Shown here one piece after another: positions 1 to 16,499 of a stretch of 17,065 nucleotides of DNA. The notes below the pieces were generated by a model that searched no databases, was not told the DNA's origin, and saw only the letters and a program-made list of their open reading frames with translations. The stretch's first letter is position 1, and every line of letters begins with the position of its first letter. This DNA is from a virus. Its lineage: Duplodnaviria > Heunggongvirae > Uroviricota > Caudoviricetes. The DNA lies in IMG/VR virus record IMGVR_UViG_2582580934_000003, positions 1 through 17,065 of that record; one strand, 5' to 3'. A program made the position numbers and the translations under genes.

Positions 1-62
1 AAGTCCTCACTATATAAAGATATTCAGTGATGAGATAAATAATCAGTTTATTAATAACGATA

Positions 63-425
63 TTAATGACCTGCTGCGCGTAGTTTTCCGTCAGGCTCAC
101 CGGCAAGAGTCAGTAATTGTCCCTGGTCTTCCTGCAGAATAGTCAGGCGACCACCGCGATTGACATACATCGGCGTTTCGGTGGTGTCTTCTTCGGAAAT
201 TTTCCCGCGGTTAGTCGGGCGAACATATGAGAGTTTGTGTTTGATTTTCACACGGTTCTCATCAAATGGTTCGATTTCCAGGTTGAGTGAGACCTTACCT
301 TTGGTTTTCGTGTTCATCACACCGGAAGCGACTTCACTGAGAACTGCGCCGATTTTGGTTTCAAATACGCCGCCGTCCAGCTCCCCGATAAATGCCTGCA
401 CATCAGTACTGCGTTCGCTAGCCAT
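63..425 (-). CDS. Hypothetical prophage protein (120 aa), first gene of the leftward operon beyond the repressor; function unknown
   Basis: ORF 63..443 in track; start moved to ATG at 425 (MASERSTD...) because GAGGAG lies 7 nt upstream. Composition is protein-like. No family recognised by eye. Confidence 0.55.
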   Translation of the reverse strand: MASERSTDVQAFIGELDGGVFETKIGAVLSEVASGVMNTKTKGKVSLNLEIEPFDENRVKIKHKLSYVRPTNRGKISEEDTTETPMYVNRGGRLTILQEDQGQLLTLAGEPDGKLRAAGH

Positions 426-473
426 TTTGCTGCTCCTCATCATATCGACCCTGCAAGGTCGGTTGGTTTCTCC

Positions 474-561
474 ACAAAACAGAGAAGAACACCTGGGTGG
501 CAGCCGCCCGGATGGATTGGGTTATCAGCTCGTCGTCCGGTGATGCTCTTCTCTGTTTTGT
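474..561 (-). promoter_or_regulatory. Large stem-loop in the 5' leader of gene 63..425: perfect 15-bp inverted repeat (474-488 / 547-561) enclosing a 58-nt loop
   Basis: acaaaacagagaaga at 474-488 and its exact reverse complement tcttctctgttttgt at 547-561, read directly. Sits between an intrinsic terminator and the RBS of the downstream gene. Confidence 0.5.
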
Positions 562-607
562 AAAAAGAGCGGTACCAGCCGGAAGCAAGTGTACAAACTG
601 GTACCGC
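561..607 (-). terminator. Intrinsic terminator on the minus strand (10-bp stem GCGGUACCAG / CUGGUACCGC, then CUCUUUUUAC); candidate DicF-like sRNA 3' end
   Basis: Perfect inverted repeat 569-578 / 598-607 followed on the minus strand by a U-run (plus 561-566 aaaaa). The upstream UUUGGCGGUACCAGUUU resembles the DicF sRNA as recalled from memory; not verified. Confidence 0.5.
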
Positions 608-1052
608 CAAAGCAGTGGCTGTTGTGGTGACCGGTGCTGATCTCCGGCATGCGGTTATTTCAGACTCTCACGGGCATTTAATTGCCCCGCCGAACAGCTC
701 TTTTCTGCAATAGCTGCAATGTCTTTCGCGCATCAGCCTGCGCATTCACCACAACGCTGAGAGCACTTAGCCAGTTACGGCACCACACTTTGTCGCGGTT
801 CCATAAATGCCCTCATCGTTGCACCCTGGTCTCTTCCCAGGCGTCAAACCGAATCGCCACGCTGGTTAGGCGTCTTATCAGCATCATCATTGACTTGCAC
901 ATTCCGGCTACCTGGTTTGTTTGCCCGAGCAAGGAGTGGATTGTCCCCTTTAACGTCCCCAGACCGCTAACGACGCATGTGCCATACGCCGTGTTACAAC
1001 CAAATTTTGTTAGTACCTTGTTTGTTTGTCTGGAAAGAAAGATAAAATGAAA

Positions 1053-1091
1053 TTGCGCATTATGCAAGTGTTTTTATTGCGAGATATGCAA
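1053..1091. promoter_or_regulatory. Two operator-like 15-mers TTGC-N7-GCAA (1053-1067, 1077-1091), candidate OL
   Basis: ttgcgcattatgcaa and ttgcgagatatgcaa spaced 24 bp apart; the same TTGCG/CGCAA half-sites recur in the cI-cro intergenic region. Confidence 0.4.
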
Positions 1092-1100
1092 TTTAATGAG

Positions 1101-1126
1101 TAATGAAAAGCCACCTTCGGGTGGCT
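1101..1126 (-). terminator. Terminator hairpin downstream of cI (AGCCACC-UUCG-GGUGGCU)
   Basis: Perfect 7-bp stem with UUCG loop at 1109-1126, about 20 nt beyond the cI stop, followed on the minus strand by UUUCAUU. Confidence 0.55.
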
Positions 1127-1146
1127 AATTGATGAGGAGGTAAGGG

Positions 1147-1839
1147 TTAATTGTGTCGCTTAAGGGTTTGTGACTGGCTGATTAAGACCTTTCCAAAGAC
1201 CATAAACCGGTGTTCATTTTCGCTGGTAATTCCCCATTCACGGTAAATCTGGTTATCAGAAATCACCAGTAGTTTGTCAGGTATCATTTGCAGTCGTTTG
1301 ACATAAATTTTATCATCAAAACCAAATACATAGATACCATCTCCATCAAACTGATTGATACTGACATCAACGAAGATGAGATCTCCTGGCTCAATGGTTG
1401 GACACATACTGTCCCCACGAACGTTGATAACTTTAATGTGATTGGCTGGCCGTCCGCCAAACATCGATACAGCATTATCAGTTCTGTATTCAATGGCATG
1501 AATCACATCAATGACATCACCGCCCTGGATAAGGCCATTTCCCGCACTGGCACTGACATCCAGCATTTCAATACGGAATACATCCTTCACCTGCGCAACA
1601 TCCTCACTAATACTGTTTTTACATACAGTATTACTTTTGAAGTCTGAGGTAAAGAGATCAGCAATATCAACACCTAAGCTCCTGGCAATATTACTCAGGG
1701 CTTGTTCAGTGAATTGTTTCTGCTTACCTGTTTCCAGGCGTGAGATATTCGCCGCATCCACTCCTATTGCTTCAGCGAGATCGGCGATTTTCATGTTCTT
1801 CGCCTGGCGAAGTTGTCTGACTCGGTTTCCTATGTTCAT
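1147..1839 (-). CDS. cI: Lambda cI-type repressor (N-terminal HTH, C-terminal S24 LexA-like autopeptidase domain)
   Basis: 230 aa with HTH region (IADLAEAIGVDAANISRLETGK) and a C-terminal GDSM ... KR Ser/Lys dyad pattern typical of S24 peptidases. Divergent from a cro-like gene. No SD before the ATG, suggesting a leaderless or weak-SD start as with lambda pRM. Confidence 0.9.
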   Translation of the reverse strand: MNIGNRVRQLRQAKNMKIADLAEAIGVDAANISRLETGKQKQFTEQALSNIARSLGVDIADLFTSDFKSNTVCKNSISEDVAQVKDVFRIEMLDVSASAGNGLIQGGDVIDVIHAIEYRTDNAVSMFGGRPANHIKVINVRGDSMCPTIEPGDLIFVDVSINQFDGDGIYVFGFDDKIYVKRLQMIPDKLLVISDNQIYREWGITSENEHRFMVFGKVLISQSQTLKRHN

Positions 1840-1859
1840 GCGTTTATTACATTTCTTTA

Positions 1860-1922
1860 TTGCGCGTTAAGCAAATCAACTTGCGCAAAATATTTGCGTG
1901 AAATAATATGCTCATCACGCAA
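1860..1922. promoter_or_regulatory. oR-like operator/promoter region between cI and cro (TTGCG half-site repeats; candidate pR -35 TTGCGC 1881-1886 / -10 TAATAT 1904-1909)
   Basis: ttgcgcgttaagcaa (1860-1874), ttgcgcaaaa (1881-), and inverted pair ttgcgtga / tcacgcaa (1895-1902 / 1915-1922). GGAGG RBS at 1928-1932 before cro ATG at 1937. Confidence 0.5.
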
Positions 1923-1936
1923 TATGTGGAGGTTAT

Positions 1937-2197
1937 ATGCAATCACCATTACGGAATGTGCGTAAGGCGCACGGATTTACTTTGCAGCATGTTGCTGCTG
2001 GCGTTCAGGTCAATCCAGCGACGCTGAGTCGTATTGAAAGACTGGAACAAATTCCATCTATCGATCTTGCAGAACGTCTGGCCAATTTTTTTAAGGGTGA
2101 AATCAGCGAAATGCAGATTCTTTATCCGGCACGTTTTCAATCTAGCCAAAACCAGAATGGGTTTAAACCACAGGAACAGGAGGTAAGCCGTGGGTAA
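1937..2197 (+). CDS. Cro-like HTH (XRE-family) regulator
   Basis: 86 aa, HTH motif (FTLQHVAAGVQVNPATLSRIE), GGAGG RBS, divergent from cI. Confidence 0.8.
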   Translation: MQSPLRNVRKAHGFTLQHVAAGVQVNPATLSRIERLEQIPSIDLAERLANFFKGEISEMQILYPARFQSSQNQNGFKPQEQEVSRG

Positions 2198-2741
2198 TCA
2201 TCACTGGAAAGTGGAAAAACAGCCTGAGTGGTACGTGAAAGCTGTCAGAAAAACTATCGCGGCGTTGCCGGGGGGGTACGCTGAAGCTGCTGAGTGGCTG
2301 GATGTAACAGAGAACGCTTTATTCAACCGCCTTCGTGCAGATGGCGATCAGATTTTCCCGCTGGGATGGGCAATGATTTTACAGCGTGCTGCTGGCACTC
2401 ACTACATTGCGGATGCTGTCGCACAGTCTGCTGGTGGGGTGTTTGTATCACTTCCAGAAATTGAGGAAGTAGAGAACGCTGATATCAACCAACGTCTACT
2501 GGAAGTTATTGAACAGATCGGGAGTTACTCAAAGCAGATTCGTTCGGCAATCGAAGACGGGGTAGTGGAGCCACATGAGCAGACAGCAATTAATGATGAG
2601 TTGTATCTGTCGATTTCGAAGCTCCAGGAACATGCGGCACTGGTCTACAAAATTTTCTGCGTTCCAGAAAAGAGTGACGCCCGCGAGTGTGCAGCTCCGG
2701 GCGTCGTGGCGTTTTGTGTCTGTGGAGAAACTAACGCATGA
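2190..2741 (+). CDS. CII-like early regulatory protein (candidate phage CII/CP76 or YdaT-like family)
   Basis: 183 aa, GTG start with AGGAGG 6 nt upstream, overlaps the cro stop by 8 nt. Position after cro matches cII. Family assignment is from memory, not from a search. Confidence 0.65.
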
Positions 2742-3076
2742 ACAGTTTAACAACACACTACCGTCGTTCGCAACTGATTGCGCTTCCTGTACCGGGTGGA
2801 AAAGCGAAGGTGGAGTATTGCTATGCAGTGAATGTACCAGGTGATAGGGAAATTGTAACCCACAGCTTTGCAGAGTGGGCTGTGGGTGATTTCAACCGGC
2901 AGAAGGAGACAGTCCTTTGCGACAAGTTAACCGCTGGTTCAAAGATCACTACGGAGTGCCCGTCAGAGTCATTCGTTGGGAGCCGGAAACACAACGGGTT
3001 ATCTACCTCCGTGAAGGCTATGAACATGAATGCTTCAGTCCGCTCGAACAGTTTCGTCGTAAATTCAGGGAAATAG
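2738..3076 (+). CDS. Hypothetical ORF, start coupled to the cII-like stop (ATGA); C-terminal half is low-complexity and may be out of frame
   Basis: ATG at 2738 overlaps TGA of the upstream gene. The first ~60 aa look protein-like; the remainder is S/T/N-rich and overlaps ORF 2917..3129 in another frame. Confidence 0.3.
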
Positions 3077-3129
3077 AGGTCGGTCATGAGCCTGTTAATG
3101 ACATCCCAGCCCATTGTGATAAATCGTGA
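2917..3129 (+). CDS. Small phage protein (70 aa), TTG start
   Basis: Strong SD GAAGGAGA at 2902-2909, 7 nt before TTG at 2917. Sequence is globular-looking ([24 protein letters not shown]...). Overlaps the replication gene start by 44 nt. Confidence 0.45.
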
Positions 3130-4078
3130 TCTTGCATGCCGTATTGGTCTGAATGAGGCAATTGTGTTGCAGCAGCTTCATTACTGGCTGAATGAAACGA
3201 ATTCAGGCACTGAGCATGGCGGAATTCGCTGGGTTTATAACACGACAGAACAGTGGCTGGAGCAGTTTCCGTTCTGGTCAGAGTCCACTCTGAAACGCAC
3301 ATTTGCAAGCCTGAAATCACTTGGGGTTTTGCGTCGCGAGCAACTCAATAAATCGAAGCGTGACATGACCAACTTCTACACGATCAACTATGAAAGTGAG
3401 CTTTTAGAAGAGGTCAAAGTGAACGAATCCATCAGGTCAAAATGCACTTCTCCATCGGGTCAAAGTGACCTGATGGATGAGCGCAAAATGACACGATCCA
3501 TTGGTTCAAAACGACACGCTGTCATCGGGTCAAAATGGCCCAATGATCTTACAGAGAATACAACAGAGATTACTACAGAGAATAAAACCTCTTCTCGTCC
3601 GGACGCTTCGCAACCGGACACGCAGATGGCTGAACAGGATTTTTTAACTCGCCATCCTGATGCGGTTGTATTCAGCCCTAAAAAGCGCCAGTGGGGAACG
3701 CAGGATGATTTGACCTGCGCACAGTGGCTCTGGAAAAAAATCATCGCTCTGTACGAGCAGGCCGCCGAATGTGACGGCGAAGTGGTACGTCCTAAAGAAC
3801 CGAACTGGACAGCCTGGGCAAACGAAATTCGCCTGATGTGTGTACAGGATGGGCGTACTCACAAACAAATCTGCGAGATGTACAGCCGCGTCAGCCGCGA
3901 TCCGTTCTGGTGCCGTAACGTGCTCAGCCCGTCGAAGCTGCGGGAAAAATGGGATGAGCTTTCCCTGCGCTTATCGCCGTCCGTCAGCACGTACACAGAA
4001 AAACGCGAAGATCCGTACTTCAAAGCCAGTTACGACAACGTGGACTACAGCCAGATCCCGGCAGGATTCAGGGGGTGA
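3086..4078 (+). CDS. Phage replication initiation protein (lambda O-like replisome organiser) with internal origin
   Basis: 330 aa; N-terminal region typical of phage replication initiators, and the central coding region carries iterons as in lambda O/ori. Confidence 0.8.
   Translation: MSLLMTSQPIVINRDLACRIGLNEAIVLQQLHYWLNETNSGTEHGGIRWVYNTTEQWLEQFPFWSESTLKRTFASLKSLGVLRREQLNKSKRDMTNFYTINYESELLEEVKVNESIRSKCTSPSGQSDLMDERKMTRSIGSKRHAVIGSKWPNDLTENTTEITTENKTSSRPDASQPDTQMAEQDFLTRHPDAVVFSPKKRQWGTQDDLTCAQWLWKKIIALYEQAAECDGEVVRPKEPNWTAWANEIRLMCVQDGRTHKQICEMYSRVSRDPFWCRNVLSPSKLREKWDELSLRLSPSVSTYTEKREDPYFKASYDNVDYSQIPAGFRG
3431..3583. repeat. Candidate replication origin: five ~14-bp iterons at ~23-bp spacing (3431, 3454, 3477, 3500, 3524) followed by an A-rich region with three ACAGAGA(A/T)T repeats (3551-3583)
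   Basis: atcaggtcaaaatg, atcgggtcaaagtg, atgagcgcaaaatg (degenerate), attggttcaaaacg, atcgggtcaaaatg, then acagagaat / acagagat / acagagaat at 12-bp period. Confidence 0.7.
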
Positions 4079-4080
4079 TC

Positions 4081-4173
4081 ATGAGTCTTTTGAATGAAGT
4101 TCAGAAATTCATTGAAGCCCATCCGGGGTGTACTTCCGGAGACATTGCGGATGCTTTTTACGTGGGGGCTTAA
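4081..4173 (+). CDS. Small ORF (30 aa, MSLLNEVQKFIEAHPGCTSGDIADAFYVGA), coupled to both neighbours; possibly a gene remnant
   Basis: ATG 2 nt after the replication gene stop; its TAA overlaps the methyltransferase ATG (TAATG). Below the ORF-track size cutoff. Confidence 0.3.
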   Translation: MSLLNEVQKFIEAHPGCTSGDIADAFYVGA

Positions 4174-4826
4174 TGAGTAATAAATATTGTCAGGCGCTGG
4201 TGGAGCTGCGGAACAAACCATCCCATGAACTGAAGGAGGTGGGCGATCAGTGGCGCACGCCGGACAGCATTTTCTGGGGAATTAACACCTTGTTTGGCCC
4301 GTTTGTTCTGGATCTGTTCACTGACGGTGATAACGCCAAATGTGCCGCGTATTACACGGCGGAAGACAACGCGCTGGCGCATGACTGGTCAGAACGCCTT
4401 GCGGAGCTTAAAGGTGCTGCCTTTGGCAATCCCCCATACAGTCGCGCCAGTCAGCATGAGGGGCAATACATCACCGGCATGCGTTACATCATGAAACATG
4501 CCAGTGCCATGCGTGATAAGGGCGGGCGCTATGTTTTCCTGATCAAAGCTGCCACCAGCGAAGTGTGGTGGCCGGAAGATGCGGACCATATTGCTTTTAT
4601 TCGCGGGCGTATTGGTTTTGAACTGCCTGCCTGGTTTATCCCGAAAGATGAGAAGCAGGTGCCGACAGGCGCTTTCTTCGCTGGTGCTATTGCTGTTTTT
4701 GACAAGACCTGGAAGGGACCGGCAATCAGCTACATCGGGCGCGATGAACTTGAGGCATGTGGTGAGGCCTTTCTGGCGCAGGTTCGCCAGCAGGCAGAAA
4801 AACTGGTCAGGGAGATGGTGGCATGA
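4173..4826 (+). CDS. Phage Dam-type DNA N6-adenine methyltransferase
   Basis: NPPY motif (AAFGNPPYS); size and position in the nin-like region are typical of lambdoid prophage Dam. Start taken at ATG 4173 (MSNKYCQ) rather than the track start 4128. Confidence 0.8.
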   Translation: MSNKYCQALVELRNKPSHELKEVGDQWRTPDSIFWGINTLFGPFVLDLFTDGDNAKCAAYYTAEDNALAHDWSERLAELKGAAFGNPPYSRASQHEGQYITGMRYIMKHASAMRDKGGRYVFLIKAATSEVWWPEDADHIAFIRGRIGFELPAWFIPKDEKQVPTGAFFAGAIAVFDKTWKGPAISYIGRDELEACGEAFLAQVRQQAEKLVREMVA

Positions 4827-5212
4827 AGCTGATCCTGCCTTTTCCGCCCAGCGTGAACACGTACTGGCGACACCCCAACAAAGGGGCGTTTGCTGGTAAG
4901 AGCCTGATAAGCGCGGCGGGGCGCAAATTCCAGAGCGCGGCGTGTGCAGCAATAGTTGAGCAGTTACGTCGTCTGCCAAAACCAACGTCGGCACCTGCTT
5001 CAGTGGAGATTGTGTTGTTTCCTCCGGATAACCGGATCCGCGATCTGGACAACTATAACAAGGCGCTGTTTGACGCCCTGACCCACGCGGGTGTGTGGGA
5101 AGACGACAGTCAGGTGAAAAGAATGCTGGTGGAGTGGGGACCGGTTATCCCGGAAGGGAAGGTCGAGATCACTATCAGTAAGTACGAGAAAACGGCGGGT
5201 GCAGCCGCCTGA
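4823..5212 (+). CDS. rusA: RusA Holliday junction resolvase
   Basis: 129 aa with the conserved DLDN...K...DALT..AG.W.DD pattern of RusA; ATGA overlap with the methyltransferase stop. Confidence 0.85.
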   Translation: MKLILPFPPSVNTYWRHPNKGAFAGKSLISAAGRKFQSAACAAIVEQLRRLPKPTSAPASVEIVLFPPDNRIRDLDNYNKALFDALTHAGVWEDDSQVKRMLVEWGPVIPEGKVEITISKYEKTAGAAA

Positions 5213-5231
5213 TCAAGAGGAGAAACGAAGT

Positions 5232-6041
5232 ATGAATAATCTGATGGTCATTGATGGTATTGAAGTTCGTCGTGATGCTTATGGGCGTTACAGCCTGAAC
5301 GATCTGCATCGCGCAGCAGTAGCATCTGGTGCAAATGCCAGAACCAAGGAGCCAGGAAAGTTTCTTTCCAGCCAACAAACTGTTGAACTTGTTCATGAAT
5401 TGACCAACACCCAGAATTTGGGTGTTGACCCGGTGAGTGTGATTCATGGGGGAAATGAACGGGGAACGTATGTCTGCAAAGAACTGGTGTATGCCTATGC
5501 AATGTGGATCAGCCCGTCATTCCATCTGAAGGTGATCCGTACTTTCGACATGGTAACCAGCGCACCGGAAAAATTATCCGGACAGGCTGCTGACAAGATG
5601 CAGGCTGGTGTGATTCTGCTGGACTTTATGCGCCGGGAATTAAACCTGTCTAACTCTTCAGTGCTTGGTGCCTGCCAGAAACTCCAGGAGGCTGTTGGCT
5701 TACCGAATCTGGCACCGCGCTATGCCATTGATGCTCCTGCTGATGCACACGATGGCTCAAGTCGCCCCACGCTGTCGCTGAGTGCACTGCTGAGGCAGTA
5801 TGGTATCCGCCTGACGGCTAATCAGGCATATCACCAGATGGTGACGCTGGGGATCGTTGAACAACGCGAACGATACAGCCGTACCGCGATTAACAACATC
5901 AAAAAATTCTGGTCGCTGACGGCGAAAGGCTGCATGTTCGGCAAGAACATCACCAGTCCTGCAAATCCGCGCGAGACGCAGCCGCATTTCTTCGAATCCC
6001 GATTCCCTGAGCTGTTAAAGCTGCTCGATACCGTTCATTGA
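5232..6041 (+). CDS. KilA-N domain protein (Roi/antirepressor-like)
   Basis: N-terminal KilA-N-like region (MNNLMVIDGIEVRRDAYGRYSLNDLHRA...). Start at ATG 5232 with RBS AAGAGGAGA. Confidence 0.75.
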   Translation: MNNLMVIDGIEVRRDAYGRYSLNDLHRAAVASGANARTKEPGKFLSSQQTVELVHELTNTQNLGVDPVSVIHGGNERGTYVCKELVYAYAMWISPSFHLKVIRTFDMVTSAPEKLSGQAADKMQAGVILLDFMRRELNLSNSSVLGACQKLQEAVGLPNLAPRYAIDAPADAHDGSSRPTLSLSALLRQYGIRLTANQAYHQMVTLGIVEQRERYSRTAINNIKKFWSLTAKGCMFGKNITSPANPRETQPHFFESRFPELLKLLDTVH

Positions 6042-6042
6042 G

Positions 6043-7038
6043 GTGACCGTGAGAGCACTACTGACCCCTGAAATTGCCCCGCGTATGGGGATTGTATTGT
6101 TCAGGCCAGGTTCAGAGCTGATGCCCCTGTTTATGCAGGGGCGTGTCCTGCTGGAGCCTGAGCCGGAACGTTATTCATCTTTCGCCAGTGGTGCCGTTCC
6201 GGCGGCATCACAACCGCTGGCGGATGATCCTGCCGTTCGGGCCGTGTTCCGCAATGAGGCAGTGATCCGTCGTGCTGGTGGCGTGGAATGTCTTGAAAGC
6301 TGGTTACTTCGTGAAAAGGGCTGTCAGTGGCCTCATTCCGACTGGCACAGCGAGAACATGACCACAATGCGGCACGCTCCGGGAGCAATTCGTCTGTGCT
6401 GGCACTGCGATAACCAGCTGCGTGACCAGTTCACGGAACGGCTGGAATCAATGGCAACGGATAACTGTGCCCGCTGGGTGTTGTCTGTCGTGCGTCGGGA
6501 TCTCGGTTTTGATGACAGTCACGTTGTGACAATGCCGGAACTGTGCTGGTGGCTGGTTCGTAATGATTTGGCGGATGCCTTACCGGAAAGTGCAGCCCGT
6601 AAGGCACTGAGATTACCGAAGCCTGTTGTGCCATCTGTCACCCGGGAAAGTGACCTTGTGCCTTCGGTTCCTGCCACCAGCATCATCCAGGATAAAGCGA
6701 AAAAGGTGCTGGCGCTGAAAGTGGATCCGGAGTCGCCGGAGTCTTTTATGTTACGCCCCAAACGTCGCCGCTGGGTTAATGAAAAGTACACGCGCTGGGT
6801 TAAGACGCAGCCGTGCGCATGTTGTGGAAAGCCAGCTGATGATTCCCACCACCTGATAGGCCACGGTCAGGGTGGAATGGGTACAAAAGCGCATGATCTC
6901 TTTGTGTTGCCTTTGTGCAGAAAGCATCACGACGAGCTGCATGCGGATACCGTGACATTTGAAGAGAAGTATGGCTCCCAACTGGAGCTGATATTTCGTT
7001 TTATCGATCGTGCGCTGGCAATTGGCGTACTGGCGTAA
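6043..7038 (+). CDS. DUF968 (YdfU-like) protein with C-terminal HNH-type Cys/His motif
   Basis: 331 aa; C-terminus CACCGKPADDSHHLIGHG...LPLCRKHHDELH. Start is ambiguous between GTG 6043 and GTG 6049. Confidence 0.75.
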   Translation: MTVRALLTPEIAPRMGIVLFRPGSELMPLFMQGRVLLEPEPERYSSFASGAVPAASQPLADDPAVRAVFRNEAVIRRAGGVECLESWLLREKGCQWPHSDWHSENMTTMRHAPGAIRLCWHCDNQLRDQFTERLESMATDNCARWVLSVVRRDLGFDDSHVVTMPELCWWLVRNDLADALPESAARKALRLPKPVVPSVTRESDLVPSVPATSIIQDKAKKVLALKVDPESPESFMLRPKRRRWVNEKYTRWVKTQPCACCGKPADDSHHLIGHGQGGMGTKAHDLFVLPLCRKHHDELHADTVTFEEKYGSQLELIFRFIDRALAIGVLA

Positions 7039-7051
7039 GTGGAGAACGAGC

Positions 7052-7804
7052 ATGAACCTTGAAGCCTTACCAAAATATTACTCCCCAAAATCTCCAAAAT
7101 TGAGTGATGCCGCACCGGCGACAGGCTCAGGTGGTTTAACGATTACGGATGTGATGGCTGCGCAGGGGATGGTGCAGTCGAAAGCACCGCTTGGGTTTGC
7201 CTTATTCCTGGCAAAAGCTGGCGTTCAGGATCCTCAGTTTGCGATTGAAGGTCTGCTCAATTACGCGATGGCACTGGATAACCCGACATTGAACAAATTG
7301 AGTGAAGAAATCCGGTTACAGATCATCCCTTACCTTGTGAGTTTTGCCTTTGCTGATTATTCCAGGTCTGCGGCAAGTAAGGCTCGCTGTGAGCCTTGTG
7401 CTGGTACTGGATTTCATAATGTATTGCGCGAAGTGGTGAAATACTCCAGAAGCGGGGAGTCTGTTATCAAGGAAGAGTGGGTGAAGGAACTATGTCAGCA
7501 TTGTCATGGTAAGGGAGAAGTCAGCACAGCGTGCAGAGGGTGTAAGGGTAAAGGTATTGTCCTGGATGAAAAAAGGACCCGGCTTCATGGCGCGCCTGTT
7601 TATAAGATTTGTGGGCGTTGCAATGGAAACCGGTTTAGTCGTTTACCAACGACACTGGCGCGGTGTCATGTCCAGAAGCTGGTACCAGACCTGACTGATT
7701 ATCAGTGGTACAAAGGATATGCAGATGTCATTGATAAACTGGTTACAAAGTGCTGGCAGGAAGAAGCATATGCTGAGGTGCAATTAAGAAAAGTGACGAG
7801 ATAA
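7052..7804 (+). CDS. quuQ: Late-gene antiterminator Q (Q82/QuuQ-type, multiple CxxC zinc motifs)
   Basis: Start at ATG 7052 (RBS GGAGAA); several CxxC pairs; immediately upstream of a strong promoter and terminator (pR'/tR' arrangement). Confidence 0.85.
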   Translation: MNLEALPKYYSPKSPKLSDAAPATGSGGLTITDVMAAQGMVQSKAPLGFALFLAKAGVQDPQFAIEGLLNYAMALDNPTLNKLSEEIRLQIIPYLVSFAFADYSRSAASKARCEPCAGTGFHNVLREVVKYSRSGESVIKEEWVKELCQHCHGKGEVSTACRGCKGKGIVLDEKRTRLHGAPVYKICGRCNGNRFSRLPTTLARCHVQKLVPDLTDYQWYKGYADVIDKLVTKCWQEEAYAEVQLRKVTR

Positions 7805-7835
7805 ATGATTTTCGCCGAAGATGGCGACGTAATGC

Positions 7836-7864
7836 TTGCATTTTTCAAAAAATATGGATAAAAT
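7836..7864 (+). promoter_or_regulatory. Candidate late promoter pR' (-35 TTGCAT 7836-7841, 17-bp spacer, -10 TAAAAT 7859-7864)
   Basis: Near-consensus sigma70 hexamers read directly; position just downstream of Q and ~50 nt upstream of an intrinsic terminator. Confidence 0.6.
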
Positions 7865-7913
7865 TTTTTCAACGATGGGCTTTATATACCCGACGTTAAG
7901 AAAAAGTAGAAAA

Positions 7914-7935
7914 CCCGCTGATGAGCGGGTTTTTG
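7914..7935 (+). terminator. Intrinsic terminator tR' (CCCGCT-GATG-AGCGGG + UUUUU)
   Basis: Perfect 6-bp GC-rich stem with a T5 run at 7930-7934. Confidence 0.7.
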
Positions 7936-8219
7936 TGCTTTAGATAGGGTAATAGAGATGTTGAATCTCATTCCGGGATTCATGTTTATTTACTTATTAT
8001 TTATCGGGTGACTTTGCCTGATGTTTAAAATGTTTTCTTCCAGTACTATGTCCCTAGATACAATGAGTCTGCATATTACATTATTAGCAGAGCTATTACG
8101 GTCAAAGTACAGCATAAGCTTTTAAAGCCAATCAACCAGTCATCAAGACAGACGGGGTTATTCATGAAAACTCTCCATGTTTGATTCGATGGGGCCTGAA
8201 ATTAAAGCTTTAATATAGC

Positions 8220-8432
8220 TCATGAAAGGTAAACATTGGCAGCTGAAGGGCCACGCAGACCATTTATCCGGCAAAATTCCACGCGTAATCCGGTGGTAAT
8301 TTCTTCTGCATCGCGGAGATTGAGCGCTGAAACATGAAGCTGGACATCGATACGACCATCGGATGGGGTGATAAGACCCTTGCCGCTTTTGCCGTCAAAG
8401 GTTTTGACAATTCCTGTCATTTTACGGGACAA
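8220..8432 (-). CDS. cspF: Cold-shock protein, CspF/CspH-like
   Basis: 70 aa [13 protein letters not shown]...[10 protein letters not shown]; cold-shock domain; divergent from cspB as in Qin. Confidence 0.85.
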
Positions 8433-8732
8433 AAAAATTCCTTAATACTGATAACTGGGCGCACTATACACACGTTCCTGAAGAAAGCTATAGTTTTTTG
8501 ATGGGGTTGAAGATGGCTGGATGTCTAAAATAAACATTGCTTCATATGTTCAACTATGCGTTAATGATTGCGTCGGTTTGAAGAACAGACGATATACGAA
8601 GTAGTTTACTAAAGCAGTTCTCATTTCAGGTGTTATTCACTTATTCCTTCTTTGAGTCTCTCCAATTAAGTACGAAGTCGTTTCTGTTATACAAGCCATT
8701 TATGCCGAAAGGCTCAAGTTAAGGAATGTAGA

Positions 8733-8948
8733 ATGTCAAATAAAATGACTGGTTTAGTAAAATGGTTTAACGCTGATAAAGGTTTTGGCTTTATTTCTCC
8801 TGTTGATGGTAGTAAAGATGTGTTTGTGCATTTTTCTGCGATTCAGAATGATAATTTTCGAACCTTGTTTGAAGGTCAAAAGGTTACCTTCTCTGTAGAG
8901 AGTGGTGCTAAAGGTCCTGCAGCAGCAAATGTCATAATTACTGATTAA
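8733..8948 (+). CDS. cspB: Cold-shock protein CspB
   Basis: 71 aa [71 protein letters not shown]; long AT-rich 5' UTR. Confidence 0.9.
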
Positions 8949-9230
8949 AATTCATAGTTTGTCTGTATACGATAACGAAGAAGGCTGATGCCTGAGTGGA
9001 GATACAGACAGAGTGGTGAATATTGGATCTCTTTAATAAATAGTAAGGAGGTCCAATACATGAAACAATGGCCAGCATATTTGGCAATAACTTAATCAGG
9101 AAAAGTATGCTAACCATTGTGGTGAAGTGCAGGTTTGCTGCATGAATAGTTTTACAGCAGAAGCTAACTGCTGGCATAGCAAAACAAAGTGCGTAAGTGG
9201 ATGACTCCCACAAAAAGTACCACAATATTA

Positions 9231-9252
9231 AACCCGCTCAGGCGGGTTTTTT
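9231..9252 (+). terminator. Intrinsic terminator (ACCCGC-UCAG-GCGGGU + U6)
   Basis: Stem 9233-9237 / 9242-9246 followed by tttttt at 9247-9252. Confidence 0.6.
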
Positions 9253-9311
9253 ATTATCTGCTTTAAATATGTTATTAAAATATAAAAAATACTTGTTACG
9301 AATAAAATCAA

Positions 9312-9482
9312 TCAAGCTACAGCTTTAAGATTTGTCTGGAATACTTTGTTGCAATGAGGGCAGATCAAAAGGGCACCTTTTTGTACTCTTGAAAAACTGT
9401 GTTCTGACTCTTGGGTGCAGTTTGGGCAGGAACATTTAACGAGATAATTACGGCGTGATTTTGAGTCTTTACGTTCTGACAT
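9312..9482 (-). CDS. Small zinc-ribbon protein (56 aa, CxxC-N17-CxxC), possibly a YdfK/YnaE-like prophage protein
   Basis: MSERKDSKSRRNYLVKCSCPNC...LICPHCNK. Start taken at the internal ATG (9482), which has an AGGA RBS, instead of the track start 9533. Family name is uncertain. Confidence 0.5.
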   Translation of the reverse strand: MSERKDSKSRRNYLVKCSCPNCTQESEHSFSRVQKGALLICPHCNKVFQTNLKAVA

Positions 9483-9700
9483 AGGCTTTTCCTGTATAAA
9501 TGGCCGTATACAGTACACTAAATATGAAAACATATCTCGTATTATTATTTAATATATGATTTTCTTTTAAAATAATTACCCACATTTTTAATGTGTCTGT
9601 TTTTTAGCGCCGTTGAGAACAACGTTTGCTATAAAAACTAACCCATAGACTCCGATCTTTTCAAACATATTGCACCATCTGTGTACATCGGGGTGAGGAT

Positions 9701-9916
9701 ATGAAATCAATGGATAAGTTAACAACAGGTATCGCCTATGGCACATCGGCTGGTAATGCTGGTTTCTGGGCATTGCAGTTACTCGATAAAGTAACTCCGT
9801 CACAGTGGGCTGCAATCGGTGTGCTGGGTAGTCTGGTTTTTGGCCTGCTGACGTATCTGACAAACCTTTATTTCAAGATTAAAGAAGACAGGCGTAAGGT
9901 TGCGAGAAGAGAGTAA
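9701..9916 (+). CDS. Pinholin (phage 21 S-type class II holin, dual-start motif M1-K-S-M4)
   Basis: 71 aa, two TMDs, [18 protein letters not shown]...; paired downstream with a SAR endolysin. Confidence 0.85.
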
Positions 9917-9920
9917 TCCA

Positions 9921-10472
9921 ATGACACAAGACTATGAACTGGTTGTGAAAGGAGTCCGCAATTTTGAGAATAAAGTGGCGGTAACTGTAGCCTTACGGGA
10001 CAAAAAACGCTTTGACGGTGAAATTTTTGACCTGGACATCTCGCTGGACCGTGTTGAAGGTGCCGCGCTGGAGTTTTATGAGGCAGCAGCCAGAATGAGA
10101 ATCAGACAGGTATTCCTGGATGTTGCTGCCGGGTTATGTGTAGGGGATGAGCAGTCGCCGGAAAAGCGCCCCATAATTTTAGAGGCGCAGAATGTGTGGA
10201 TAACCTACAAAGGAAAGCTACCGGGAAGAATTACTGGTTCTCTGAAGACGCCACCGACGGCATTGCGGTCAGAAAAAGATGATATTGAATCGCCCATTGA
10301 AAAACTGGAGGGCAGCGTCGCTGATCTGAATAAAAAATTGTCGGTGCTGATCCCTTCTGAAGATGAAAAAAAACGCCGCGATGAGCAGTTTGCGGCGTTT
10401 TACGATTATTGCATTGAAGTTACTCGCAGGAATTTTGTGAAGATTTTTGAGGAGGGTAAATCTCTTCAGTAA
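9921..10472 (+). CDS. Hypothetical protein (183 aa) inserted between holin and endolysin; possibly YdfR-like
   Basis: ATG at 9921, 4 nt after the holin stop; protein-like K/E-rich composition. Same strand as the lysis genes. The YdfR suggestion rests on position only. Confidence 0.55.
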   Translation: MTQDYELVVKGVRNFENKVAVTVALRDKKRFDGEIFDLDISLDRVEGAALEFYEAAARMRIRQVFLDVAAGLCVGDEQSPEKRPIILEAQNVWITYKGKLPGRITGSLKTPPTALRSEKDDIESPIEKLEGSVADLNKKLSVLIPSEDEKKRRDEQFAAFYDYCIEVTRRNFVKIFEEGKSLQ

Positions 10473-10680
10473 GCTTAATGGCGGACGCTGCAATTAATTC
10501 AGGAAGGTCCGCAAGGTCATCTGTCAGTGGATATGATGAAAAATCGGCGGCAGTTCTGTTAAGAAGCGCTTTAACTAATTCCTTTTCCTTCTCCGGCAAC
10601 AAGTTGATTAGAGCTACGACTGCTTGCCTGAGTGCGATTAAATCAGCAAAAGTTTGTTTTGGTAGATTTGTGTAATCCAT
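10420..10680 (-). CDS. Hypothetical protein (86 aa), convergent with and overlapping the 3' end of the 183-aa gene by 53 bp
   Basis: ATG at 10680 with SD AGAGGTG 5 nt upstream; helical-looking sequence MDYTNLPKQTFADLIALRQ... Confidence 0.4.
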   Translation of the reverse strand: MDYTNLPKQTFADLIALRQAVVALINLLPEKEKELVKALLNRTAADFSSYPLTDDLADLPELIAASAIKLTEEIYPPQKSSQNSCE

Positions 10681-10793
10681 AGTCACCTCTGTGTTTATCA
10701 GATTGACATCCTCCTCCCGCCAGTGCCCATCACTGGTGAGGTAAGATTTAACATATCCGGGGATTTGAAGCCGATAAATCCTGATAAATATCC

Positions 10794-11821
<1,028 letters not shown>

Positions 11822-12181
11822 ATTAATATTAAATCGGATTATTTTTAGCGCTGAATGTGAAATTTAAATAAAAAGGACTCTTCCATGAGTCAAAATCCTT
11901 GAAATCTTAAGGGTAAGATAAAAGGTCATTAGACAGAATGACACGTTTTATTAATAAATAAAGCTATTGTTTCATTCGTGTGTTTTTCTTTACAAAAGTA
12001 ATCCTTGCTATGGTTGGTTAATCATGCGTTAATGGTGTTCTGGTTTGTTACAAAATTATCTGAAGCAGTCATTGTTATAATTTTATTATTTGTACCTCTT
12101 GAGATTTCCTTGTTGGTTTTTCTCTCTGATATTTTTTTTCGGACCATTCTGCCCAAGGGCTAACTTCTTCAAAAGGTAATA

Positions 12182-12397
12182 ATGATGTTTAACAAAATGA
12201 CTGGTTTAGTGAAATGGTTTAACCCTGAAAAAGGTTTTGGTTTCATCACGCCGAAAGATGGTAGCAAAGATGTGTTTGTGCATTTCTCAGCTATTCAGAG
12301 CAACGATTTCAAAACGTTAACTGAGAATCAGGAAGTCGAATTTGGTATTGAGAACGGACCTAAAGGCCCTGCAGCTGTTCATGTAGTGGCACTTTGA
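12182..12397 (+). CDS. cspI: Cold-shock protein CspI
   Basis: 71 aa ...[67 protein letters not shown]; long AT-rich 5' UTR. Confidence 0.9.
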
Positions 12398-12607
12398 GGT
12401 AGAAAATATTACAAACCATATTCACTTTAGATGCCCGTGTTGCCATGGTTCTCAGTATAGAACATCATCTTTTGATGTTTCTGACAGAAATCCTTTCGGG
12501 GCAAAATGTATCTTTTGTAAATCAATGATGATTACATTTGATAATATTTCACAATACTTAAATGTTAGCCATCTGTCGTTAGATTTAAGAAAGTGAAAAT
12601 GAAGGCT

Positions 12608-12661
12608 CCTTCGGGCGCGTTTTTTGTAAAGCTAACAAATTGTTTCTATTAGCTTATTTCT
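12608..12661. repeat. Direct repeat copy 1 (54 bp, identical to 13278-13331); lacks the left arm of the terminator stem
   Basis: ccttcgggcgcgttttttgtaaagctaacaaattgtttctattagcttatttct, read directly in both places. Confidence 0.85.
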
Positions 12662-12852
12662 GCCCTTGAGCTGCCGTTTTTTTATTCTGTTAGTTGTGAA
12701 ACTGAAGCGATTTAGTCACTATCGATCTCATCAAATATGGCTCGCTTTGAGATATTCCTCAAGTAAAAAAACACCTCTTCCTGCGATTTCTCACAAAAAA
12801 GATTCGTTGACAAAAAGTGACAAAATTATGAGATTCCCATCACACATTTTGA

Positions 12853-13248
<396 letters not shown>

Positions 13249-13273
13249 TCCTTTATATTGAGTGTATCGCCAA

Positions 13274-13295
13274 CGCGCCTTCGGGCGCGTTTTTT
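13274..13295 (+). terminator. raiA intrinsic terminator (CGCGCC-UUCG-GGCGCG + U6)
   Basis: Perfect 6-bp GC stem with UUCG loop and T6; its right arm and T-run form the start of direct repeat copy 2. Confidence 0.75.
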
Positions 13296-13331
13296 GTAAA
13301 GCTAACAAATTGTTTCTATTAGCTTATTTCT
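13278..13331. repeat. Direct repeat copy 2 (54 bp, identical to 12608-12661)
   Basis: Exact 54/54 identity with copy 1; flanking bases differ (12607 t vs 13277 g; 12662 g vs 13332 t). Confidence 0.85.
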
Positions 13332-13399
13332 TATAAACATCCACAAACTGTCCACATCAGTAATGATATACAAGCCCGCAAAAAAATGCGGGCTTTGTC

Positions 13400-14206
13400 T
13401 TATGGAGCCGAAATGGTTGTGGTAATAGTCCCCCGAAGCCGTTGCGCTGCTACCTCAAAATAATGATCACTGGTTTCTATACCAATAAATTTTCGCCCTG
13501 CTTTCAGTGCAGCCACACCCGTTGTCCCTGACCCCATAAAAGGATCAAGGACTGTTCCGCCACTATTCACAGTCCTGACCAGTTCCGCCATTAGTTCTTC
13601 TGGTTTTCCGGTCGGGTGCATTTTCTTTGACGGGATAACCGGGAACGTCATGCAGCCGTCGAACGGACCCGAAGGCGATTTACCTAAATGGCCTTTACTG
13701 CCCCAGACGATGTATTCGCACTGATGCCGGAAATACCCGGTATGGGGTGTTCGTGACCCCCTCCCTTTGTTCCACGCAATAATTCCACGCCATGTAAAAC
13801 CGCTGGCCTGAAACGCATCGGTTAAAGCAGGCAGTTGCCGCCAGTCAGTAAATACCAGGGCATAACCGCCCGGCCTGACTGCGCGGTGTGCCTGTGCCAT
13901 CCATAATTGTGTCCAGTAAGCCCACGAACGGGCATCCATGTTTTCACCCGCAAATTCATCAAAGCGGTGAAGGCTCTCGCCGTTCAGATATTTTGCGTGG
14001 CTGCCCTGGTTGGTGCGTCCGGCCTTGTGTGTCGCGCCCGAACTGTAAGGCGGGTCAGTGATTAAGGCATCAATACTTTCTGGCTCAATCAGCGGCAATA
14101 TTTCCAGCGCATTCCCACGACAGAGCGTGGCATTGTCAGTCTGATAAACCTTAGTGTGTTCCGGTGTATGTGCTGGTTGGTGCTGGATTGCGATCCCCAC
14201 GGTCAT
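13400..14206 (-). CDS. DNA methyltransferase, beta-class amino-MTase (N6-adenine or N4-cytosine)
   Basis: 268 aa; motif IV DPPY (LITDPPYSSG) precedes motif I (VLDPFMGSGTTGVAA), the beta-class order. The start may be GTG at the third codon, which has better SD spacing. Confidence 0.85.
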   Translation of the reverse strand: MTVGIAIQHQPAHTPEHTKVYQTDNATLCRGNALEILPLIEPESIDALITDPPYSSGATHKAGRTNQGSHAKYLNGESLHRFDEFAGENMDARSWAYWTQLWMAQAHRAVRPGGYALVFTDWRQLPALTDAFQASGFTWRGIIAWNKGRGSRTPHTGYFRHQCEYIVWGSKGHLGKSPSGPFDGCMTFPVIPSKKMHPTGKPEELMAELVRTVNSGGTVLDPFMGSGTTGVAALKAGRKFIGIETSDHYFEVAAQRLRGTITTTISAP

Positions 14207-14348
14207 AACTCCTCATGTGTGTGGGGTGCTCGATGGCTCTCGTTATCTGGTTAAGTGTTTTGCAGCGCGGACATTTTATTTCAATGTAGTGAAATGAGGC
14301 GCGGGCAAGTAGTTTGTTGCAATTTTTGCATCGTACATTTTGCGTCAT
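14151..14348 (-). CDS. com: Com-like zinc-finger translational regulator (phage Mu Com family)
   Basis: MTQNVRCKNCNKLLARASFHYIEIKCPRCK: CxxC-N16-CxxC close to Mu Com. ATG at 14348 with SD AAGAGGTG. The 3' end overlaps the methyltransferase start by ~55 nt. Confidence 0.7.
   Translation of the reverse strand: MTQNVRCKNCNKLLARASFHYIEIKCPRCKTLNQITRAIEHPTHMRSYDRGDRNPAPTSTYTGTH
14195..14226 (-). promoter_or_regulatory. Stem-loop sequestering the methyltransferase SD and start codon (mom-like translation initiation region)
   Basis: On the mRNA, CCCCAC (plus 14221-14226) pairs with GUGGGG (plus 14195-14200), enclosing GAGGAG and the AUG at 14204-14206. Confidence 0.45.
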
Positions 14349-14385
14349 TTGCGGCACCTCTTGTGTGGTTACTGCTGCCGATATG

Positions 14386-14436
14386 ATAACAAATCGATCG
14401 TTTTTATCGATCGGATTTATTGCATCGATCTGTTAT
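14386..14436. promoter_or_regulatory. Symmetric operator-like element upstream of com: three ATCGATC repeats (each with a GATC) inside a 13-bp imperfect inverted repeat
   Basis: ATCGATC at 14393-14399, 14406-14412, 14424-14430; arms ataacaaatcgat (14386-14398) and atcgatctgttat (14424-14436) match 12/13 as reverse complements. Confidence 0.5.
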
Positions 14437-14486
14437 GCCTATTGCTTATGTATGGTGCCCTCATTTGTGAGGGTAGCAAAAAGAAA

Positions 14487-14518
14487 ACCCGCAGTTTTTA
14501 CGCTGCGGGTTTGTTGTT
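14487..14518. terminator. Bidirectional intrinsic terminator (ACCCGCAG / CUGCGGGU, T-runs on both sides)
   Basis: 8-bp stem 14487-14494 / 14503-14510, TTTGTTGTT downstream on plus and TTTCTTTTTG downstream on minus. Confidence 0.5.
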
Positions 14519-14566
14519 CATGTCTGTGAGATAGGGTGCCGTTTCGACCAACCTTAGCAACCGATT

Positions 14567-14899
14567 GACGGGGGATTACCCCCCCCGTCGCGGTTATCTT
14601 ACTTATTACATAGTAAGAATGCCGCAATTTCCGTGCCAGCAAACCTGAATCGTAACTCGCACGGTGATGTGTGGAGGATCCAGATTATCGCTACCGCAGT
14701 TATGCAAAGTAACAGGGTTTTTAACGGAATTTGCGTCATAACGCTTGTCTCCTGAGAGGAGAGGCGCTAACCTTCTACTTGCGAAGGTAAGAAGTGTTAG
14801 GGCCTCGGTTAAACAGAAATGTTTTCCGGGGCCTTTCCACATCTGGCCTTCGGGTATTCCCTCCGACCATCAGCCGAAAGGCACCCGCGCGTAATCTAT
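14567..14899. other. Highly structured non-coding region between ogr and the com promoter (candidate sRNA and/or prophage attachment-site remnant)
   Basis: Hairpins at 14567-14589 (GACGGGGG / CCCCCGTC), 14597-14618 (TCTTACT / AGTAAGA), 14749-14761 and 14801-14833 (13 bp with a GAAA loop), then a T6 run at 14893-14898. No credible ORF. Confidence 0.4.
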
Positions 14900-14930
14900 C
14901 GCTTTTTTGTTACTCCGGCAATTCTGCCTG

Positions 14931-15191
14931 TTAATTCTGAGATAAAGGCAAACTCATCTGATTGTTTCCCCTGTGTGAAGCTGGCAGATCATGCCACGGG
15001 ATACCTTCTGAAGAGTGAACGCCGGAGGCGTGTTTTGATGTGAATTTATGGAAAGCTTCCAGTGTTGAGAAGCATACGCCGCATTCCAGGTTGTTACACT
15101 GGTAATACTTTTGCCGCACGGTGTTTGAATCATTTTCCGGACGACTGGTGCGGATACGGGCAGATGCGCCACAAAGCGGACAACGGAACAT
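14931..15191 (-). CDS. ogr: Ogr/Delta-family zinc-finger late transcription activator (P2 Ogr-like)
   Basis: MFRCPLCGASARIRTSR...YYQCNNLECGVCF: the CxxC...CxxC signature of Ogr. Strong SD GGGAGG. Directly downstream of a gene D homologue, as in P2. Confidence 0.85.
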   Translation of the reverse strand: MFRCPLCGASARIRTSRPENDSNTVRQKYYQCNNLECGVCFSTLEAFHKFTSKHASGVHSSEGIPWHDLPASHRGNNQMSLPLSQN

Positions 15192-15233
15192 AGCGACCTC
15201 CCTTAACGTGGTGCTGCCGCTATTCTAAGTTGC

Positions 15234-16343: not shown

Positions 16344-16499
16344 CTTTCCCTCCCTGTGCAGCATGGTCGCATGTGCGTGCGGAGGGGGTTACTGCTTTTT
16401 GTTGTCGCCGTGGCGGGAGAACGGCGCGGGGGTGAGATTACGCGCGTGGTGGGTGATGATTGTTGCCGAATCATTTAACGGATACAAGGGGCTGAAGCT

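Follow-up and report, generated by a model that had tools for sequence, protein, structure and literature searches.

The stretch analysed here, 17,065 nucleotides (nt) of Caudoviricetes DNA that form positions 1 to 17,065 of the IMG/VR record IMGVR_UViG_2582580934_000003 (the window), carries on its minus strand a gap between a cI-type repressor gene and the gene yfdP, in which an initial annotation made from the sequence alone had noted a terminator hairpin resembling the prophage small RNA (sRNA) DicF. Our comparisons point to the hairpin as a diverged relative of DicF, and most of the gap is made up of other conserved RNA modules, which that annotation had missed. In a lambdoid prophage of the mEp460/SfV/CPS-53 type, positions 444-1106 probably form the leader, untranslated, of the PL-type (leftward early) operon, a reading that we hold, taken as one with the working proposed for it below, to be rather likely.

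Over bases 1-1900, the window matches several Escherichia coli chromosomes at 100% identity and the lambdoid phage mEp460 at 98%. Stx2 phages, cdtI, 2H10, SfII and others have related copies of the region, and the prophage in the window is itself defective. The minus-strand order is cI-type repressor, terminator, two operators, ~600 nt that are without RefSeq annotation, and yfdP-yfdQ-yfdR, with yfdP as the first gene of the early-left operon. Phage lambda carries nutL and N at the equivalent place of its leader. The features of the leader and its borders are listed below (dG, folding free energy).

1147-1839, minus strand: cI-type repressor gene
1126->1109, minus strand: intrinsic terminator of the repressor gene and upstream limit of the leader, from a terminator scan (7-bp stem with 5 G-C pairs, T run)
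1053-1067 and 1077-1091, no strand assigned: two 15-bp palindromic operators of pattern TTGCN7GCAA, which is also found at OR (1860-1874)
1067-1062 (-35, TTGCAT) and 1044-1039 (-10, TATCTT): possible elements of the inferred promoter PL, which the operators cover, read from the sequence
769..1009, minus strand: Module A, a conserved structured leader element of ~240 nt with 79-99% identical copies elsewhere
753..768, minus strand: boxA-like motif AAGUGCUCUCAGCGUU, adjoining Module B1 on its upstream side
623..752, minus strand: Module B1, a 130-nt tRNA-shaped element with closing stem GUGGUG/CACCAC
609..622, minus strand: linker ACAGCCACUGCUUU, which contains GC|UUU (613-609), a motif of RNase E type, read from the sequence
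556..611, minus strand: DicF-type intrinsic terminator (stem 608->568, U5 566->562), from model R1, the DicF alignment and the fold
472..564, minus strand: long-range stem, candidate RNase III site (arms 541-564/472-494, ~46 nt enclosed)
446..461, minus strand: small hairpin CGACC-UUGCAG-GGUCG, separated by 7 nt from the downstream Shine-Dalgarno sequence (dG -8.5, z = -2.9)
63..438, minus strand: yfdP (ATG at 425) with its Shine-Dalgarno sequence GAGGAG (438->433), from the RefSeq annotation of the identical E. coli locus; phrog_204

The promoter scan made no PL call, and the inferred PL scores 7/12. Among relatives, the small hairpin at 446..461 has one double compensatory variant, CGGCC/GGCCG.

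Coding potential of the gap

The initial statement that ~650 nt lie here without a convincing open reading frame (ORF) was upheld. The longest ORF on the sense strand of the leader, which starts inside an operator, encodes 84 amino acids (aa) with no PHROG or Pfam match. None of six leader ORFs matched Pfam, and only two PHROG matches, of no weight, were returned for them. A 56-aa sense-strand ORF (418-588) weakly matches phrog_33599 (E 3.7e-7), the function of which is unknown. Antisense to the conserved RNA modules lie two hypothetical proteins of mEp460, mEp460_036 and mEp460_037 (L001; window 497-640 (+) and 682-1050 (+)); one of these ORFs is without a match, and the other, of 47 aa, matches part of phrog_3651. 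In close relatives, the stretch of the 47-aa ORF contains 1-nt insertions or deletions that shift its frame. A protein-coding reading of the gap was rejected on the PHROG and Pfam results and on these frameshifts. The two antisense mEp460 proteins are probably annotation artefacts of conserved non-coding DNA, and the family phrog_3651 is perhaps another. The PHROG and Pfam searches likewise found no N-like ORF among the leader ORFs, and no arginine-rich N-like ORF is present, as the initial annotation had said and in agreement with a report that phages with yfdP/yfdQ/yfdR early-left operons are without N (PMC12315714). The 650-base gap is not a lost or decayed gene.

A terminator hairpin related to DicF

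DicF is a classic prophage sRNA by which a cryptic phage interferes with the cell division and metabolism of its host, and several copies of it are found in enterohaemorrhagic E. coli (EHEC). The hairpin in the window is a strong intrinsic terminator of the minus strand, as first noted. Its perfect 10-bp arms (569-578/598-607) extend to a 13-bp stem (608->568) that is followed by CUUUUU, with UUUGGCGGUACCAGUUU at 611->595 and CGCUCUUUUUAC at 571->560 of that strand, and none of 200 shuffled sequences was as stable as its predicted fold (dG -21.2 kcal/mol, z = -4.7). Hairpins of this kind form a family in other phages, consisting of UUGGCGGU, a covarying upper stem, a variable loop and ACCGCCCUUUUUAC.

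The likeness to DicF was examined by direct alignment, by a family model and by gene context. Nucleotides 13-53 of the 53-nt DicF together with its tail align with the hairpin at 37/51 identities (blastn with K-12 dicF, E = 0.003), and the Smith-Waterman score against DicF is 43, compared with 22.2 +/- 3.3 in 1000 shuffles (maximum 36; z about 6.4). A covariance model, R1, was built from nine hairpins of other phages, with K-12 DicF and the window type left out, and was run with filters off over 54 kb; its E-values are rough. Only four matches were obtained: the type from which the model was built, the window hairpin (32 bits, E 7e-7), its equivalent in SfII (31.5 bits) and K-12 DicF (26.4 bits, E 3e-5). 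Sister phages, represented by many viral contigs (for example, L158), have the same Module A, hairpin, long stem and yfdP as the window, and between Module A and the hairpin they carry ~130 nt that closely resemble what directly precedes dicF in Qin. In a three-way alignment, the Qin dicF locus and L158 are collinear from this segment through the terminator, the main difference being a 19-nt deletion relative to Qin that removes the DicF 5′ seed. Where the sister phages carry this dicF-precursor segment, the window has a different tRNA-shaped element, B1. Because the direct alignment, the independent family model and the collinearity with Qin dicF in sister phages all indicate homology, the hairpin is, as judged from sequence, a genuine diverged relative or paralogue of DicF, from which it differs in its 5′ flank and its loop.

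The resemblance seen initially therefore stands as homology, and it does not extend to canonical membership. The Rfam DicF model (RF00039) gave no match at E<=10 in searches of 1300 nt and of 256 nt; K-12 DicF, the positive control, scored 76.7 bits and an intermediate hairpin type 27.1 bits, with the curated score at 48 bits. The single-stranded 5′ seed of DicF, UUUCUGGUGACG, which pairs with xylR, has been removed from the window hairpin by the 19-nt deletion, and its loop is not the one through which DicF pairs with ftsZ. The duplex predicted with the ftsZ initiation region reaches -24.7 kcal/mol, a value that 95% of shuffles equal or better, compared with -38.5 kcal/mol and 5% of shuffles for the DicF control. 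Targeting of ftsZ, for which complementarity had initially been considered, was rejected, the duplex being no better than that of shuffled RNA. Because the Rfam match is missing, the 5′ seed is deleted and the complementarity to ftsZ is absent, the hairpin is not canonical DicF.

The surroundings of the hairpin resemble those of DicF (Qin dicBF, RF00039) in several respects. Both hairpins have a UUUGGCGGUA.CAGUUU 5′ arm and a CCGC.CUUUUU tail, both lie in the leader of a repressor-controlled leftward prophage operon with an intrinsic terminator as the 3′ end, and both are directly followed by a long stem that ends before the ribosome-binding site of the next gene; in the sister phages, the same ~130-nt element also lies upstream. 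By contrast, the stem in the window is longer and perfect (13 bp), the loop differs, and the downstream gene is yfdP rather than dicB. The hairpin is a candidate 3′ domain of an sRNA. By analogy, the GC|UUU motif just 5′ of the hairpin is a candidate site of RNase E cleavage; the 5′ end of DicF is made by RNase E (PMC5069750).

The hairpin and the long stem together are present in 2491 of 5426 complete E. coli genomes (~46%), with up to five copies each, and are never annotated as RNA in those genomes. K-12 is without the leader, CPS-53 being deleted up to the yfdP ribosome-binding site. No published description was found, including by searches with literal sequence strings; the EHEC EcOnc catalogue and the four dicF copies of EHEC were not checked, and one of the catalogue entries may be this RNA. 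In P1 (L006, minus strand, just upstream of ban), AUUUUCUGGUGAUG stands directly after Module A and is nearly the same as the DicF 5′ seed AUUUUCUGGUGACG, which the window hairpin is without.

A long stem after the terminator

What had been described as a 15-bp perfect stem, directly after the terminator and followed by the ribosome-binding site of the downstream gene, is present and is larger as RNA. At the DNA level, the inverted repeat has 18-nt arms (474-491/544-561) that are 94% complementary. In the minus-strand RNA, a stem of 23 bp including G.U pairs is predicted (dG -42.5, z = -7.15; 0/200 shuffles as stable); the extra pairs are G.U and so exist in the RNA of that strand only. Single-base variants in relatives mostly keep the pairing (G.U to G-C, G.U to A-U), and two break a pair. 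The nutL/N leader of lambda contains an RNase III hairpin, a large stem between the early promoter and the first ribosome-binding site. The window has an RNase III-type stem in the corresponding place, between the early promoter and the ribosome-binding site of the first gene, and differs in having neither boxB nor an N protein.

An analogue is found in Qin, where a stem that begins in the DicF U-tract (arms 3945-3963/4074-4092 of L004; dG -62.9, z = -4.4) ends just before the dicB ribosome-binding site. RNase III makes the 3′ end of the 72-nt DicF by a cut 19 nt after the terminator (PMC5069750; bioRxiv 10.1101/2023.04.14.536235), which places the reported cut inside the arm of the Qin stem. 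By analogy, the 23-bp stem of the window is a probable RNase III site.

The tRNA-shaped element and its relation to STnc100

Directly upstream of the linker, Module B1 has a variable core that is flanked by the hairpins GCGC(AGGCUGAU)GCGC on its 5′ side and GCCGG(AGAUCAGCA)CCGGU on its 3′ side. The two hairpin loops are mutually complementary (GCUGAU/AUCAGC), and the centroid fold of B1 is a cloverleaf. An exact 25-mer of the element is found in >120 viral contigs. Across its copies, the 25-nt 5′ end and the 28-nt 3′ end are almost invariant and the middle varies from ~10 to 300 nt, which gives the element a length of 63-365 nt. In 48 distinct end-pairs, 98% of the cells are paired and six pairs change on both sides, a result that none of 500 shuffles reached; this set had been filtered for intact hairpins, and in the unfiltered list four loci are uncompensated and more are compensated. 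The variants of the closing stem all keep G.U pairs. ARAGORN found no tRNA or tmRNA in the leader, and the Rfam tRNA model found no match. In contrast to a tRNA, B1 is without an anticodon arm and a recognisable T-loop, and its middle is hypervariable.

The element was found in 159 phage records of very different types, among them lambdoid, P1-like, T1-like, N4-like and Ackermannviridae phages, and often heads arrays of real tRNAs. In the Klebsiella phage KP591P1 (L374 2501-2885), it lies 5 nt upstream of a tRNA-Ser/Arg/Met array. Some phages carry it between a canonical nutL and N-like ORFs, and it is also present in the late leader of HK620. In the Ackermannviridae phage UPM 2146 (L375 1406-4742), the element lies within 3.3 kb that carry no annotation, with tRNA-Met and tRNA-Arg at the end; gaps of this kind may hold further unrecognised RNA elements. 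The 3′ hairpin of B1 (631-648 (-), GCCGGAGAUCAGCACCGG) is almost the same as positions 30-47 of the Rfam model for RydB, an E. coli sRNA (GCCGGAGAUAAGCGCCGG), a likeness of 13.7 bits that may be due to chance. At permissive thresholds, Rfam returned no meaningful match in the leader.

In SfII, the counterpart of the window RNA (tRNA-shaped element plus hairpin) matches the Rfam STnc100 model from end to end (39.5 bits, E 3.6e-7; gathering score 47), and the dicF-dicB stretch of Qin (L004 3933-4142) matches it at 34.4 bits. The Qin stretch itself contains a degenerate tRNA-shaped element, GUGGUGAAUGCGGCUGAGCGC ... CACCUGGAGGCACCAGGCAC, the extended closing stem of which is the long stem with the reported RNase III trimming. 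In STnc100, the same closing helix (UGGUG/CACCA) surrounds a hairpin on the 5′ side, hairpins that vary and, next to the helix, a hairpin on the 3′ side, and a short linker and an intrinsic terminator come after it; the hairpin sequences of the B1-type element in the window are different. B1 plus the terminator is the architecture of STnc100 and of the 190-nt DicF precursor. sRNAs from tRNA 3′ trailers, such as 3'ETS-leuZ, lie 3′ of a tRNA and end at the operon terminator. The candidate sRNA of the window is placed similarly: a tRNA-shaped element directly precedes it on the 5′ side, and its end is the terminator of its operon. According to a 2026 preprint (bioRxiv 10.64898/2026.05.13.724894), in which DicF is not mentioned, STnc100 is related to PasD, an Hfq-bound sRNA. 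PasA, PasB and PasC were set aside as unrelated by their published probe and seed sequences.

These comparisons raise a broader and less certain implication, namely that sRNAs of this kind are products of a mobile tRNA-shaped scaffold, the window carrying one diverged DicF/STnc100-type cassette. In its full form, which we put forward tentatively and consider doubtful, the tRNA-shaped element would be a widespread, unrecognised phage RNA scaffold that is handled by tRNA-processing enzymes and that releases or presents interchangeable modules; DicF, STnc100, PasD and the window RNA would be its outputs, and DicF would have started out as the 3′ trailer of a tRNA-like gene in a phage.

Module A and the boxA-like motif

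A sensitive search against phage genomes revealed that the leader is a mosaic. Module A, within which hairpin 1 (992->970) folds with dG -12.4 (z = -3.4) and two hairpins show compensatory changes, is found in P1, P7 and D6 between trnI (tRNA-Ile) and ban. Podophages of the phiV10 type have a promoter, then Module A, tRNA-Arg(UCU) and a DicF-type terminator. Many lambdoid phages with differing immunity regions also carry Module A, including cdtI, 2H10 and Stx2c phages, and a Klebsiella phage has Module A, the tRNA-shaped element, the linker and a DicF-type terminator at a quite different position in its genome.

A YGCUCUY motif stands at a fixed offset of -13/-14 before the tRNA-shaped element in 66 of 139 unique contexts, compared with ~0.5% per context by chance; its commonest form is CAGUGCUCUUUCCGUU. 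The viral contigs L115 and L124 have an insert of ~110 nt between Module A and the tRNA-shaped element with T-arm-like pieces, GCUGGUUCAAUUCCAGAC and GUCCGUUCGAUUCGGAC, which implies that the leader gains and loses tRNA-like units. The boxA that the initial annotation had seen in the terminator tail did not hold up: the likeness comes from a single C->U change, and the family consensus CCGCCCUUUUU is not a boxA. A nut site at this tail was rejected, CGCUCUUU not being conserved in the hairpin family. No boxB-like hairpin follows the tail, the next hairpin being the 23-bp stem with its ~46-nt interior, and the window differs from a lambda-type nut in having neither a boxB hairpin nor an N-like ORF.

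A second comparison concerns the put sites of HK022, which is, like the phages considered here, a lambdoid phage that lacks N and whose PL transcript begins with a structured RNA (PMC9378689). Hairpin 1 of Module A shares CGGCG...AUGCGUCG with stem I of HK022 putL, a similarity that is not significant. By contrast, Module A is three times longer than put and also lies inside the tRNA units of P1- and phiV10-type phages. Membership of the put class was rejected: over the window, no putL match is better than E = 2.3, and neither stem II nor a putR-like second copy is present.

Proposed working of the leader and alternatives

The operators, the terminator, the modules, their homologies and the non-coding nature of the leader come from sequence and comparison; from these we infer how the leader might work. 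The explanation that we consider rather likely as a whole is that the leader is a chain of mobile non-coding modules (Module A, the boxA-like motif, B1, the DicF-type terminator and the 23-bp stem) in which the hairpin acts both as an attenuator and as the 3′ end of an sRNA, the target of which is not ftsZ. Once the repressor leaves the operators, PL would transcribe through Module A and B1. For a fraction of the transcripts, synthesis would end at the hairpin, leaving an RNA that carries a terminator and U-tail, the usual 3′ end bound by Hfq. The terminated RNA might be kept at ~190 nt (B1 plus hairpin), like the long DicF species and STnc100; alternatively, RNase E might trim it at GC|UUU to ~50 nt. 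Read-through RNA would form the 23-bp stem and be cut there by RNase III, as reported after dicF, and this cut would separate the sRNA from the yfdP mRNA and set the 5′ end of the latter.

A precedent for such an RNA is StxS, the short PR'-tR' transcript of Stx phages, which is an operon leader that ends at a terminator and is an RNase E-processed, Hfq-binding sRNA (PMC7873438). Its terminator is under antitermination control (PMC7873438). In contrast to the proposed RNA, StxS belongs to a late, Q-dependent operon, shares no sequence relation with it and is constitutive in lysogens, whereas PL is repressed.

Several observations weigh against an sRNA made in this way. In addition to the Rfam DicF and ftsZ results described above, the Rfam STnc100 model (RF02076) has no match in the window, and 9-mer matches to targets inside the window are at chance level. 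The terminator is strong and would have to be passed without an N protein, for which partial read-through, as in the dicBF operon, is the simplest answer. The family conserves the base of the stem and the tail while the loops differ, a pattern that fits selection for termination as well as a trans-acting seed. Finally, the relatives found by way of YfdP all have 100% identical proteins and differ too little in the long stem for covariation to be assessed. The main alternative, which seems to us somewhat unlikely, draws on the same pattern: upper stems that covary and loops that are unrelated, with conservation confined to the stem base and U-tail, together with the lack of ftsZ complementarity and of a target in the window, would suit a purely cis-acting leader. 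The hairpin would then be an attenuator (a tL-like terminator), the long stem a processing or stabilising signal of the yfdP mRNA, and the likeness to DicF that of a shared mobile terminator module, with no trans-acting sRNA; the same hairpin type also closes the tRNA-Arg unit of phiV10-type phages, where a plain terminator is expected. However, DicF, STnc100 and PasD are stable RNAs, and DicF and PasD bind Hfq (PMC5069750, PMC8550237, bioRxiv 10.64898/2026.05.13.724894); StxS is a short terminated phage leader that acts as an sRNA (PMC7873438); and the 3′ structure in the window is a typical Hfq-binding module.

The initial annotation had also considered RNA-based antitermination. In such a scheme, Module A (acting like put) or the boxA-like motif with host Nus factors would replace N and render the polymerase resistant to the terminator and to Rho over 600 untranslated nt. 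The lack of an N-like ORF here and the report that phages with such early-left operons are without N (PMC12315714) agree with it, as do the start of Module A ~20-45 nt past the promoter in several immunity types, the 9-mer and 6-mer that hairpin 1 has in common with putL stem I, and the fixed offset of YGCUCUY in about half of the contexts. Nevertheless, the putL match is not significant, equally good chance matches being present elsewhere; put stem II is absent and no second copy follows cro; the boxA-like motif is degenerate in the window (UGCUCUC); the same motif follows genuine tRNAs in arrays and may thus be a tRNA-spacer or processing signal; and the likeness of the terminator tail to boxA is not kept in the hairpin family. 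We regard antitermination as possible but weak, and improbable on the whole. Least probable is an origin of the leader as inert debris, either what is left of a decayed tRNA operon of a phage or a broken N gene that recombination has carried along. The defective state of the prophage in the window, and modules that adjoin real tRNAs in other phages while ARAGORN finds none in the leader, could be read in this way. This origin is nonetheless very unlikely, given that the plaque-forming mEp460, cdtI and Stx2 phages have the same leader, that the tRNA-shaped element and the Module A hairpins show compensatory and G.U-preserving changes, that the whole cassette of Module A, tRNA-shaped element, linker and hairpin is kept at a different position in a Klebsiella phage, and that no reading frame resembles N.

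A DicF paralogue that ~46% of the complete E. coli genomes carry would, if expressed, act as an unrecognised regulator, and its targets would be others than ftsZ. The collinearity ties together DicF and STnc100 and, through the literature, PasD, families that have been described separately, and the link of all three to phage tRNA arrays suggests how such sRNAs may arise and move. The proposed working amounts to a concrete model of termination and of processing by RNase III as well as RNase E, and the analysis flags two mEp460 hypothetical proteins that lie antisense to RNA and are probably not genes, as well as the PHROG family that one of them partly matches.

Other features of the prophage remnant

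The operator pattern TTGCN7GCAA has a fourth exact match at 3329-3343, inside a 330-aa ORF (3086-4078) and far from OL and OR; four matches to the pattern were also present in 7 of 200 shuffles, and this one may be due to chance. At curated scores, Rfam found two cspA thermoregulator 5′ leaders in the whole window and nothing else, at 8572-9011 (+) (160 bits) and 12027-12443 (+) (105 bits), which implies that the remnant carries two cold-shock-protein paralogues with structured leaders. In E. coli 13TMH22 (L003 1082-2677), the same prophage has, ~3.3 kb past the window's left edge, a gene for an anti-phage dCTP deaminase that adjoins its integrase, and because of this neighbourhood the remnant may have been kept as a defence island.

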